A stretch of DNA of 64,000 bases from assembly GCA_965116815.1 (NCBI GenBank), contig OZ220722.1, forward strand, positions 149,962 through 213,961. Direction: 5' to 3'. Shown here piece by piece: positions 58,216-61,311 of the stretch. The translations under genes were made by a program, and so were the position numbers. The DNA comes from Candidatus Poribacteria bacterium. GTDB lineage: Bacteria > Poribacteria > WGA-4E > WGA-3G. The notes below the pieces were generated by a model that saw only the letters and a list, made by a program, of their open reading frames with translations, was not told the DNA's origin and did not search any database. The first letter of the stretch is position 1, and each line of letters opens with the position of its first letter.

Positions 58216-58244
58216 TTGACACGAGATTACGCATCGCATATAAT
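58216..58244 (+). promoter_or_regulatory. Perfect-consensus sigma70 promoter
   Basis: TTGACA (58216-58221), 17 nt, TATAAT (58239-58244), with an A-rich stretch upstream. About 130 nt upstream of tnpA. Confidence 0.6.
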
Positions 58245-58376
58245 TTCGCATGTTCACTTGTAGGCGTGCGGTGGACGTGCGCGAACTACAAGCGAGATAC
58301 ATAAGGAGGTCTTCCTAAATAGTTAATTATCTATGTTTTTCTTGTTTTTTCTATGTTTTTGTGGTATGCTTATAGT

Positions 58377-58982
58377 ATGAAACACTATAAAACACCACGA
58401 GAAACATCGGAGATTCTCGGTATTTCTATAGATAGACTCCGACGGTTAGCAGAGAACGGCACAATCTCTACTATCCGAACGCCGGGTGGACAAAGGCGTT
58501 ATGATGTGCAGGGGTATCTTGATGCGCAAACCGAAACAGAGATTACTACCATTGGGTATTGTAGAGTCAGCAGTAGCGGGCAAAAAGAAGACCTCACGTC
58601 CCAAGTCGCGTATGTCCAAAGCCACTATCCTGAAGCAGAGATTATTCGAGACTTTGGAAGTGGTATCAACTTCAAAAGAAAAGGACTTCTCTCCTTACTG
58701 GAACGCATCTTGCGAGGTGATAAACTCCACATTGTTGTTGCCCATCGGGATCGACTCGCCCGATTCGGCGGAGAAGTCATACAATTCTTGGTCGAACAAA
58801 ACGGTGGAGAAGTCGTGGTTCTCGACGAGACTGTTTACAGCCCCGAGGAAGAACTTACTGCCGATCTCCTCGCAATTCTGCATGTCTTTTCCTGTAGAAT
58901 GTATGGACTCCGGCGATACCGTGACCAAATCAAAGAAGATCGAAATCTTTCCCACAGTGGAACAGAAAGCGATACTCCGTAG
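58377..58982 (+). CDS. tnpA: IS607-type serine recombinase transposase TnpA
   Basis: MerR-like HTH (TPRETSEILGISIDRLRRLAENGTISTIRTPGGQRRY) followed by the resolvase catalytic motif IGYCRVSSSGQKEDL. Confidence 0.85.
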   Translation: MKHYKTPRETSEILGISIDRLRRLAENGTISTIRTPGGQRRYDVQGYLDAQTETEITTIGYCRVSSSGQKEDLTSQVAYVQSHYPEAEIIRDFGSGINFKRKGLLSLLERILRGDKLHIVVAHRDRLARFGGEVIQFLVEQNGGEVVVLDETVYSPEEELTADLLAILHVFSCRMYGLRRYRDQIKEDRNLSHSGTESDTP

Positions 58983-60072
58983 ATGGTTTGGCACGTCTCG
59001 ATATACGTATAATGCGTCGGTATCTGCTCTACAAGAGCAAGGAAACCCACCGAAGAACTTCAAAGGACTTGTTTCCATTGTGCTTGACCGCCTTCCCGAA
59101 TGGCATGTAGACACACCGCGCCAAATCAAGGCAGGCGCGGTTATGGATGCGTGTCAAGCGGTTCGCAATGCCAAAATAAAGGCAAAAGCGACAGGTGAGC
59201 GTCAAAACGTCAAGTTTCGGTCCAGAAAGAATCGTAGACAGACACTTTATCTGCGTGCCGACTCCCTGAAAAACAATGGTTTTTATGTTCGTTTTTTAGG
59301 TGATATGAAGATGTCAGAGCCTTTGCCTGCTAAACCACAAGGGACAGGTAAGAAATCAGAACGTGATACGAATGCGGAGGTCAAGGATTCTCAATTGATA
59401 CTGGAAAATGGCAGATATTTTCTCTGTGTTTCTTATGTTGAGAAGAAAAAGACGCGAGAACCAAGCGGTAGAATAGTAGCACTTGACCCCGGTGTTCGTG
59501 ATTTTATGACGTTTTTCTCTGAAGAGAGTTTCGGTTGGTTAGGACAGCAGTGTATCAACCGTATTCAAAGATTGTGTCAACACTGCGATAACCTCCTATC
59601 ACGCGCAACGCAAGAGAAACGCCCGCTACGGCGTGCTTTGCGGAAAGCCGCGAATAGAATAAAGGTAAAAATCCGTAATCTCATTGATGAACTTCACAAA
59701 AAGGTTGCACACTTCCTCGTAACAAACTTTGACATCATTTTGCTTCCAACCTTTGAGACGAAACAGATGACGAAACGAGGCGCGCGGAAGTTGCGAAAGA
59801 AGTCCGTTCGACAGATGCTAACACTCTCACACTATAGATTCAAAATATTTCTGAAACACAAGGCTTTGGAATATGGTGTGCGAGTTGTTGATGTCTGTGA
59901 AGTTTATACTTCTAAAACGGTGTCTTGGACAGGTGAAATCGTCGCGAACCTCGGCGGCTCTAAAGTTATCAAGTCATCGGAAGGTCATCGTATGGATAGG
60001 GATTTGAACGGCGCACGTGGGATATTCATCAAGAATGTCGCAGGTGCTTTGACGGTTCGTCCATCTACTTAG
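58903..60072 (+). CDS. tnpB: TnpB (OrfB) RuvC-like nuclease, zinc-finger cysteines absent
   Basis: Start at MDSGDTV (alternative at 58882). KIEIFPTVEQKAILRRWFG. RuvC-I ALDPGVRD. RuvC-II LPTFETKQM. RuvC-III MDRDLNGARGI. The segment between YTSKT and DRD reads VSWTGEIVANLGGSKVIKSSEGHRM with no Cys. Confidence 0.8.
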   Translation: MDSGDTVTKSKKIEIFPTVEQKAILRRWFGTSRYTYNASVSALQEQGNPPKNFKGLVSIVLDRLPEWHVDTPRQIKAGAVMDACQAVRNAKIKAKATGERQNVKFRSRKNRRQTLYLRADSLKNNGFYVRFLGDMKMSEPLPAKPQGTGKKSERDTNAEVKDSQLILENGRYFLCVSYVEKKKTREPSGRIVALDPGVRDFMTFFSEESFGWLGQQCINRIQRLCQHCDNLLSRATQEKRPLRRALRKAANRIKVKIRNLIDELHKKVAHFLVTNFDIILLPTFETKQMTKRGARKLRKKSVRQMLTLSHYRFKIFLKHKALEYGVRVVDVCEVYTSKTVSWTGEIVANLGGSKVIKSSEGHRMDRDLNGARGIFIKNVAGALTVRPST

Positions 60073-60138
60073 GTAGATGCAAACCGCGTTTTACAGAGAT
60101 TTTTCTGTAAATACGCAGGTTCAAAGGAACAGGCTGAT

Positions 60139-61311
60139 ATGGCAGAACGAATTAAAATGGGATTAGTCGGATGCGGTGGTATGTCCGGTGCTCACATGGG
60201 CGGGTATCGCCAACTCTGGTCCCAAGGCATCAGGGATTATGAGATTGTGGCAGCGTGCGACATCGCAGAGGAACGCGCTGAGGAACGTGCAAATCAGGCG
60301 CAAGAGTTCCAAGGTGGCACGAAACCAGCCGTCTATACAGAACTCGACCAGATGCTGGCGAAACACCCCGATCTGGAGTGTGTTGACATCTGCGCGCTTC
60401 ACAGTGCCCACCACACACTCGCTGTCCCTGCACTGGAGGCAGGGAAGCATGTTATCATCGAAAAGCCGTTCGGTATCACAATGCGGGCATGCAAACTGAT
60501 GATGGACGCGGCGGATCGAAACGATAAGATTATCTCTGTCGCTGAAAACTATCGCTTGGCACGTATCCAACGCACACGCAGCTGGGCAATCGCGCAAGGA
60601 CGTATCGGCGACCCTCGTATGTTCTTCTGGATAGAGGTCAACGAAGGCTTAGGGAAATGGGGTTGGCGTAACTTCAAGATGGATGCAGGCGGCGGTTGGG
60701 CATTAGATGGCGGCGTGCATTTCACCGATCTGATGCGCTATATCCTCGGCATGGAAGCCGAAGAGGTCTATGCCATCAACAAGGCTTACGAACCTTTCCG
60801 ATACGACAATCCGGCAGAAAGAGAAGGCGGTTATGCGGTTGATGTCGAGGATGCCATGATCGCTACCATCAAGTTTGAGCAAGGCGTTACAGCGCAGTGG
60901 ACATGGGTAGGTTCAGCCCCTGGGCGAGGATTCGGTCAACATACCGTCTACGGCAGCGAGGGCGCGCTTGACTGGAATCAAGGATTGGTGCCCCGCGGCG
61001 GTGAGCCGATTTCCAACGAAGACCTGATGAAAGAATTCACCGATAGCCTCAGCGATTCGGAACGGGAATACTTCTTCCCGGGCGGCGTAGAAGATACCGT
61101 TGCGATTGAACTGAAATACTTCGCCGATGCAATTCGGACAGGTGGTAAGCCGGAAGTAGATGATGTCGAAGGCATGCGGTCAGAAGCCATCTGCATGGCA
61201 GTCTATGAATCGGGATGGTTCGGTCGTCCAGTAACAATTGAAGAGATCGAAAACTGCGAACTGGAAGGCTACCAGAAGGAAATTAACGATAAGTTAGGAA
61301 TTGGGGTGTAG
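60139..61311 (+). CDS. Gfo/Idh/MocA family oxidoreductase
   Basis: N-terminal Rossmann motif MGLVGCGGMSGAH. EKPF motif (HVIIEKPFG). About 390 aa. Confidence 0.8.
   Translation: MAERIKMGLVGCGGMSGAHMGGYRQLWSQGIRDYEIVAACDIAEERAEERANQAQEFQGGTKPAVYTELDQMLAKHPDLECVDICALHSAHHTLAVPALEAGKHVIIEKPFGITMRACKLMMDAADRNDKIISVAENYRLARIQRTRSWAIAQGRIGDPRMFFWIEVNEGLGKWGWRNFKMDAGGGWALDGGVHFTDLMRYILGMEAEEVYAINKAYEPFRYDNPAEREGGYAVDVEDAMIATIKFEQGVTAQWTWVGSAPGRGFGQHTVYGSEGALDWNQGLVPRGGEPISNEDLMKEFTDSLSDSEREYFFPGGVEDTVAIELKYFADAIRTGGKPEVDDVEGMRSEAICMAVYESGWFGRPVTIEEIENCELEGYQKEINDKLGIGV

Follow-up and report, generated by a model that had tools for sequence, protein, structure and literature searches.

Pro-Fanzor (TnpB2) proteins, a group of IS607-associated TnpBs, are recognised by a DPG motif combined with a shifted RuvC-II glutamate (Yoon et al. 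2023, 10.1101/2023.08.09.552727; Jiang et al. 2023, PMC10530073). They were collected with a pattern requiring CxxC...CxxC, and members without these cysteines were therefore invisible to that search (10.1101/2023.08.09.552727). The best solved relative of the protein described here, by sequence (E = 6.6e-25) as well as fold, is Fanzor2 of Acanthamoeba polyphaga mimivirus (ApmFz2, L79; PDB 9b0l), whose catalytic triad D324/E467/D501 was set by structure and mutagenesis (PMC11832414). In a 2023 census, the zinc finger appears as usual, not universal, with losses of its four cysteines (C4) noted in large TnpB branches, and the role of the zinc ribbon in TnpB and Cas12f is described as unclear (PMC10691335). 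We analysed a 64,000-nucleotide (nt) stretch of a Candidatus Poribacteria genome (GenBank assembly GCA_965116815.1, contig OZ220722.1, positions 149,962 to 213,961 of the forward strand; hereafter the window, whose positions are used throughout), which contains an IS607-family element of 1824 bp (58309..60132) with a tnpA gene and a tnpB gene. Candidatus Poribacteria are sponge symbionts. The locus is likely to be a live IS607 element whose Cys-less TnpB belongs to the pro-Fanzor branch, acts as an RNA-guided nuclease, and carries a Fanzor2-type N-terminal domain overprinted on tnpA. All features given below lie on the + strand.

Cysteine loss and the RuvC active site

The first-pass annotation of this DNA had reported the loss of all four zinc-finger cysteines of TnpB between YTSKT and DRD, and our analysis bore this out. 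Residues 335-367 (numbered, unless stated, on a form of 389 amino acids, aa) read YTSKT-VSWTGEIVANLGGSKVIKSSEGH-RMDRD with a Cys count of zero; in a gap-free alignment to L79, the CxxC...CxxC positions fall on V340, T343, S358, and E360, and the C4 zinc finger that TnpBs usually have between RuvC-II and RuvC-III is absent. The remnant of the ribbon (residues 340-362; 59920..59988) was modelled by AlphaFold2 (AF2) at a predicted local distance difference test score (pLDDT) of 89-96 over residues 331-370, and its ratio of nonsynonymous to synonymous substitution rates (dN/dS) was ~0.11-0.14 between subfamilies. No CxxC occurs in any of the three frames of 59890-60012, which leaves neither a masked module nor a frameshift, and the motif is kept in 4/4 genomic copies through synonymous changes. 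A sequencing error, frameshift, assembly artefact, or decaying pseudogene hiding a CxxC...CxxC module, for which we found no supporting evidence, is refuted by these frames and copies together with a segment dN/dS of ~0.1 and the recurrence of the same motif in more than 110 homologues from independent assemblies. Two unrelated TnpBs of the same genome (L005, G000:C1:322653-323483; L006, 5532947-5533549; 27-29% identity) carry a standard CSDCG...CPECG zinc finger; cysteine loss is therefore a feature of the lineage, not of its host.

Among the 117 closest database homologues with the motif, the segment was Cys-free in 113 and held one stray Cys in four. Searching 1.84 billion cluster representatives without a profile yielded 5912 relatives; cysteines were counted in the 121 full-length representatives among the best 150: 48 had none, 14 had one to three, and 59 had the full set. 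Nearly all reduced forms grouped in one clade (67 rows, 96% support) of a tree built without the Cys columns. In this clade, the first Cys is replaced by Asn, Ala, or Val and the second by Thr, the two residues inside the first pair become Ser and Trp/Phe (84% aromatic), the third position is variable or gapped, and the fourth column is deleted in 91% of Cys-less members. A Cys-less relative at 40% identity (L069) resides in the same kind of IS607 element, with tnpA overlapping. The Cys-less state is a lineage character with literature precedent, and not the unusual one-off first supposed, as a large clade shares it and such losses are already noted in the census (PMC10691335). In the literature searched, we found no functional study of a Cys-less protein of this type.

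The zinc ribbon is here converted to a cysteine-free mini-domain, with a near-invariant Trp/Phe at the first knuckle and a shortened second knuckle, which the model predicts to fold without metal. A variant zinc site, in which the ribbon binds metal through other ligands (His, Asp, or Glu such as E345, E360, H362, and D365), could be read into the Poribacteria segment SSEGHRMDRD, which has one His and several acidic residues. Across the Cys-less clade as a whole, however, only E345 (72%) and the RuvC-III residue D365 are conserved among these; position 362 is mostly Ile or Val, position 360 varies or is gapped, and Ser, Trp/Phe, Thr, and Gly are the replacements that are conserved, which makes such a site highly improbable.

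The catalytic aspartates proposed in the first-pass annotation, in ALDPGVRD and MDRDLNGARGI, held firm. D195 of RuvC-I (59485..59487; D334 in the 528-aa P0291) lies in ALDPGVRD, which contains the DPG of pro-Fanzor and TnpB2 proteins, and corresponds to Fanzor2 D324, while D367 of RuvC-III (60001..60003; RMDRD) corresponds to D501. Across the 121-sequence alignment, D195, G197, E333, and D367 were invariant and P196 was conserved in at least 90%. The glutamate originally assigned in LPTFETKQM (E285; 59755..59757; TFETK) does occupy the canonical RuvC-II position, where ~65% of relatives have Glu and Fanzor2 has Asn, but the invariant Glu of the clade is E333 (59899..59901; DVCEVYTSKT), six residues before the former zinc-finger position and aligned with Fanzor2 E467. 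Because E333 is invariant while E285 was lost repeatedly in relatives, the alignment suggests that E333 is the operative Glu and that D195-E333-D367 is the probable triad. Within the clade, the canonical Glu has been replaced repeatedly (by N, D, S, Q, or G), with the shifted Glu invariant, and proteins with both glutamates, like this TnpB, look like an intermediate of active-site rearrangement. The AF2 model of the 389-aa form (pLDDT 93) matched 9b0l at a template modelling (TM) score of 0.74. Fold comparison with ISDra2 TnpB gave TM 0.73-0.78 and Z 26-27.

A TnpB without a zinc ribbon might also keep its binding to omega-RNA and target yet be a weak nuclease, a nickase, or a pure RNA-guided DNA binder that, for example, guides TnpA to AGGAG or represses the vacant site, in place of a double-strand homing endonuclease. 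All four zinc ligands are lost here and the second knuckle is shortened; rearranged RuvC-II sites alter the cleavage behaviour of Fanzor and TnpB2; and inactivated, exapted TnpBs are known (PMC10691335). We nevertheless consider this unlikely, given that D195, E333, and D367 are invariant in 121 diverged relatives, all Cys-less ones included, whereas known DNA-binding derivatives lost them, and that the gene remains in a mobile insertion sequence (IS) beside tnpA. Neither of the losses that mark TldR-like inactivated or exapted TnpBs was found: no catalytic residue varies, and the element is a mobile one with its own tnpA. We favour a TnpB that would cleave DNA as an RNA-guided nuclease; the structurally distinct nuclease raised in the first-pass annotation is a plausible reading of the locus.

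Dual coding of tnpA and a probable long form of TnpB

The tnpA gene (58377..58982) encodes a 201-aa serine recombinase with a MerR helix-turn-helix (HTH) domain; its assignment to the IS607 type, made at the outset, agrees with matches to NF033518 (IS607 transposase; 176 bits, cutoff 110), Pfam Resolvase (E = 1e-16), and the MerR domain. Substitutions in tnpA between copies were concentrated at codon position 3. The originally modelled tnpB, a 389-aa open reading frame (ORF) from ATG 58903 to 60072, is a genuine TnpB ORF (NF040570, guided_TnpB, 116 bits against a cutoff of 100; Pfam Cas12f1-like TNB, E = 9e-13), but this model missed an N-terminal domain inside tnpA. The frame is open from GTG 58486, and an in-frame ATG at 58522 is kept in 19/19 distinct copies. 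From these features, the product is likely to be 516 aa long (58522..60072) and to overlap tnpA by 461 nt, with about 130 residues at its start written inside the transposase gene. Most cluster representatives are 500-545 aa, with ~146 extra N-terminal residues; in most Poribacteria copies, and likewise in the distant L069, the tnpB frame runs open through tnpA.

The real protein could still be the 389-aa form, with the upstream open frame and its motifs arising from constraints on tnpA (protein, codon bias, or an RNA/DNA element) and left untranslated. The Pfam and NCBIfam models span short-form residues 7-374 only, and gene callers often give 382-396 aa. Moreover, when substitutions were counted by codon phase over the whole overlap, they fell mainly at tnpA third positions and no constraint was apparent; this count missed the dual coding because constrained patches alternate with free linkers. 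Several lines of evidence, of which synonymous diversity is the decisive one, make an untranslated extension quite unlikely.

We measured tnpA synonymous diversity at the third positions of codons with an invariant amino acid across the 19 distinct copies. Mean diversity was 0.27 over codons 37-103, fell to 0.073 over codons 104-153 (23/33 codons at zero), rose to 0.42 over codons 154-170, and dropped again to 0.042 over codons 171-200, above the annotated TnpB N-terminus. The difference between codons 104-153 and codons 2-103 was significant (permutation P < 5e-5). Since the collapse lies exactly beneath the alternative-frame motifs, the stretch 58687..58836 (tnpA codons 104-153) is protein-coding in both frames, its +1 frame encoding the conserved part of the TnpB N-terminal domain (PYWN, LLLPIGIDSP, and KSWFST). 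In L069, the tnpB frame has fewer stops than synonymous permutations do (P 0.0005).

Conservation beyond Poribacteria points the same way. W111 and F112 of the extension are invariant in 53 aligned long forms (31-48% identity outside Poribacteria), and at least 90% of them share W72, L83, and S110. The extension motifs persist in the relative L073 (P0203), in which both other frames are closed; the relative L072 (P0257) showed no serine-recombinase motif across this stretch, and one other frame there is open for 145 codons. A profile of the long forms matched Fanzor2 (L79) at E = 2.7e-59 in an alignment reaching L79 residue 77, and it placed SWF on the SWY of the RuvC-R segment in the Fanzor2 N-terminal domain. 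A phmmer search with the 528-aa form alone did not reach that domain; only the family profile did so. In the AF2 model of the 528-aa form, residues 1-68 were disordered, and the only two confidently folded islands of the extension were a helix spanning residues 74-82 (pLDDT ~85) and a strand spanning 113-118 (~74). This model aligned by fold to 9b0l over residues 68-520 against chain residues 53-515 (Z 28.7, root-mean-square deviation 3.6 Å, 415 residues), while every other TnpB or Cas12f structure aligned from model residue ~144 only.

Synonymous-site suppression, the invariant Trp-Phe, and the profile and fold matches together indicate that a domain of the Fanzor2 N-terminal type, which in Fanzor2 forms the structured RuvC-R and thumb portion ahead of the TnpB core, is probably written in the +1 frame inside tnpA. 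Neither an earlier description of such a domain overprinted on tnpA, nor any mention of an N-terminal domain in pro-Fanzor or TnpB2 proteins or of its tnpA overlap, was found in the literature searched. Dual coding implies that current annotations of many such genes are truncated (~380-396 aa) or hide tnpA beneath a long ORF.

Two further observations concern tnpA. Upstream of its ATG, most copies among L012-L053 carry GTGGTATAAT ~6 nt before the start, a -10 box close enough that the tnpA mRNA would be leaderless; in this copy (58363-58379) the box reads TATGCT. A 491-aa Poribacteria database entry (P0095) contains both Resolvase and TnpB TNB domains, which points to a TnpA-TnpB fusion, a frameshift in the read, or misassembly of the overlap.

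Mobility, target site and predicted omega-RNA of the element

We compared the four genome copies and their flanks by BLAST-anchored alignment of two subfamilies. Comparison of copies A1 and A2 placed the left end at ~58307-58310 and the right end at 60132. In sister genomes of the same genus (L058, L059, and L060), the orthologous site is uninterrupted and reads ...AAGGAG|GCTGATATGGCAGAACG..., that is, the flank through 58308 joined straight to 60133. The difference between filled and empty sites is exactly the element plus one AG, and this AG is common to both junctions. The core dinucleotide was AG, and not the GG of IS607 (H. pylori), at 22/22 distinct left junctions and at all right ends. 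Terminal inverted repeats are absent, as is any target duplication apart from the shared AG, which is just what exchange by a serine recombinase is expected to leave.

Four intact copies are present in the genome (two at 97-99% and two at 85-88% identity), and 45 related loci were found, all within Candidatus Poribacteria genomes (~25 genomes). Over TnpB residues 160-378, median dN/dS was 0.078 across 664 pairs. The element is mobile and maintained: it is polymorphic between genomes, present in multiple copies, accompanied by an intact TnpA, and under purifying selection. These observations, with the covarying RNA scaffold described below, lead us to reject the domesticated or inactive copy that the first-pass annotation had entertained. 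We detected no non-autonomous copy of the right end in the source genome.

Near the left end, two subterminal direct repeats TCTATGTTTTT (58330-58340 and 58350-58360) are conserved in all copies and, by analogy with IS1535/IS607 biochemistry (PMC6188088), are probably TnpA binding sites. Copy A2 (L008; G000:C1:3838047-3839832) is short by one 20-nt unit of this repeat, so the number of presumed TnpA-binding repeats is polymorphic. Copy A2 and L025, from another Poribacteria genome, occupy the same orthologous site, with the right flank ATAGCCATGCAAG... in both, and they bear different types of the 3' tail that forms the guide-RNA scaffold; this suggests repeated homing at that site or tail exchange. 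Decayed copies also exist in the family, L055 (CBDBPM010000002.1) having an in-frame tnpB stop just ahead of its ANLGG codons.

The left flank ends in AAGGAG (58303..58308), which is the Shine-Dalgarno sequence of the interrupted Gfo/Idh/MocA gene and includes the 2-bp AG core; in the sister genomes the empty site is ...AAGGAG|GCTGATATG. All 22 distinct left flanks terminate in AG, and 18 of them in AGGAG, with A-rich sequence further upstream. On the right, 41/45 distinct flanks had, 2-11 nt away (mode 6-7), a start codon leading into 80 or more open codons, as compared with 18% of random positions. With AGGAG on the left and a start codon 2-11 nt off on the right, the element separates the Shine-Dalgarno sequence from the start codon and points the same way as the host gene. 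Experiments gave AGGAG as the target-adjacent motif (TAM) of 18/22 IS607 TnpBs (PMC11061315). The AGGAG flank agrees with the rule by which TAM and transposase target motif coincide, and by this analogy AGGAG is the predicted TAM of the present TnpB.

In the window, 58216-58308 holds an exact-consensus promoter (TTGACA-17-TATAAT), a hairpin leader, and the AAGGAG, all belonging to the Gfo/Idh/MocA gene (ATG 60139). The IS insertion cuts them off from that ATG; in the sister genomes they are contiguous with the gene. All tail types finish their right ends (60123-60132; L012-L055) with the purine-rich A(A/G)GAACAG, and the host start codon follows after 2-11 nt. In this copy the right end is AAAGGAACAG, which, given read-through, may be a substitute ribosome-binding site for the downstream gene, making insertions tolerated. 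Strict insertion between a ribosome-binding site and a start codon was not described earlier in the literature searched; it provides a clean example of one motif serving as TAM and target, and likely has consequences for host gene expression.

The tnpB 3' end and the tail beyond it overlap a predicted omega-RNA scaffold (59946..60132, with a provisional 5' limit) marked by covariation. We aligned the 200 nt before the right end in 16 A-type copies. The predicted consensus structure comprises 59 pairs, of whose cells 96% are paired, and both sides changed in 22 pairs; its covariation score was 0.268, against 0.13 for shuffled alignments (0/500 reached the observed value) and 0.03-0.07 with partners slid, and single-sequence folding gave a z-score of -4.8. 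The helices lie at 60013-60047, 60054-60057/60082-60085, 60062-60079, and 60086-60116. Two hairpins already pointed out at 60062-60079 and 60091-60110 are thus real omega-RNA helices, the second extending to 60086-60116 with compensatory changes in 10/12 pairs. A tentative long-range helix pairs 59946-59951 with 60117-60122 and has one covarying pair in A-type tails. The tails are of at least three types, all ending ...A(A/G)GAACAG.

As the scaffold and element run to 60132, the predicted guide starts at 60133 (60133..60152), the first base past the right end, and takes in the spacer together with the ATG and opening codons of the Gfo/Idh/MocA gene. The guide had been expected just past the omega-RNA, next to the start of this gene, and that position stands; the right end, placed earlier at ~60110, is 22 nt further downstream. 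The sequence from 60133 also follows AAGGAG in the empty site of L058. By analogy with characterised TnpBs, the guide would be ~16-20 nt long.

Proposed mechanism and relation to known systems

These features can be joined in one scheme. TnpA would move the element as double-stranded DNA, with exchange at the 2-bp AG core and a strong AGGAG preference; because of this preference, the element would land between a Shine-Dalgarno sequence and a start codon, co-oriented with the gene. The tnpB 3' end and the 60-nt tail would give rise to the omega-RNA, whose scaffold ends at 60132 and for which the adjacent host sequence would be the guide. TnpB would then cut the vacant site, bearing the AGGAG TAM and a match to the guide, and recombination would restore the element, a homing role as in other TnpBs.

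Several points weigh against this interpretation. In characterised TnpB and Cas12f proteins, the TNB zinc ribbon adjoins the RuvC pocket, and losing it could hamper substrate loading. E285 and E333 are both present, which leaves the operative Glu ambiguous. Disorder is predicted for about the first 68 residues of the long form, and synonymous sites of tnpA show no suppression there, so the exact tnpB start is uncertain. The long-range helix 59946-59951/60117-60122 is not kept in other tail types and lies in conserved codons. Finally, the omega-RNA matched no Rfam family; for RAGATH-18, neither the window nor three other tail types gave a hit at E <= 1. We give about even chances to the full combination, namely that a large pro-Fanzor-type branch, missed by CxxC searches, is active without zinc; that the Fanzor2 N-terminal domain is already present in it, overprinted on ~460 nt of tnpA in the IS607 elements examined; that AGGAG serves homing as target and TAM; and that AAAGGAACAG is perhaps a substitute ribosome-binding site. 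A large, maintained Cys-less lineage offers a natural test of whether the zinc ribbon is dispensable and a template for metal-free compact editors.

The transposase side of the element resembles IS607/IS1535 (Chen et al. 2018, PMC6188088) in its MerR-HTH serine recombinase, subterminal direct repeats, lack of inverted repeats and target duplication, and exchange over a 2-bp core common to element ends and target. It differs in that the core of IS607/IS1535 is GG and its target nearly random, whereas here the core is AG, and AGGAG, in the gap from Shine-Dalgarno sequence to ATG, is strongly preferred as target. ISFba1-type TnpBs (Ren et al. 2024, PMC11061315; PDB 8iaz) share the IS607 context and a core of similar size (387 vs 389 aa), and their measured TAM, 5'-AGGAG, equals the left-flank consensus found here; unlike the present protein, ISFba1 has the canonical Glu (E290), has kept its cysteines, and uses a RAGATH-18 guide RNA, and identity in fold alignments is 17-18%. 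In the census (Altae-Tran et al. 2023, PMC10691335), branches of zinc-finger-less TnpBs such as RIIIr-4 show natural C4 loss across whole branches judged still active; RuvC-III is also rearranged in RIIIr-4, whereas a typical DRDxN is present here.

Pro-Fanzor and TnpB2 proteins of IS607 elements are similar in the DPG motif, the Glu six residues before the zinc-finger position, the IS607 TnpA, and a guide RNA overlapping the gene 3' end. The TnpB described here lacks the CxxC...CxxC of the published pro-Fanzor pattern, and it retains E285, while TnpB2 (Jiang et al.) is defined by loss of the canonical RuvC-II Glu, a loss seen in ~35% of the relatives. Pro-Fanzors were reported mainly from Cyanobacteriota; a Poribacteria lineage would widen the group to animal symbionts. 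With Fanzor2, the element shares the DPG motif, the shifted catalytic Glu, an N-terminal domain with an SW[FY] strand, and the context of an IS607-type serine recombinase. Fanzor2 differs in keeping its C4 zinc finger, in having Asn at the canonical Glu position, a GGG TAM, and a nuclear localisation signal, and in belonging to a eukaryotic virus, whereas the TnpB described here comes from a bacterium and not from a eukaryote or its virus, is Cys-less, has Glu at both positions, and has flanks indicating AGGAG. The Fanzor2 N-terminal domain would thus have bacterial relatives, which bears on the origin of Fanzors.

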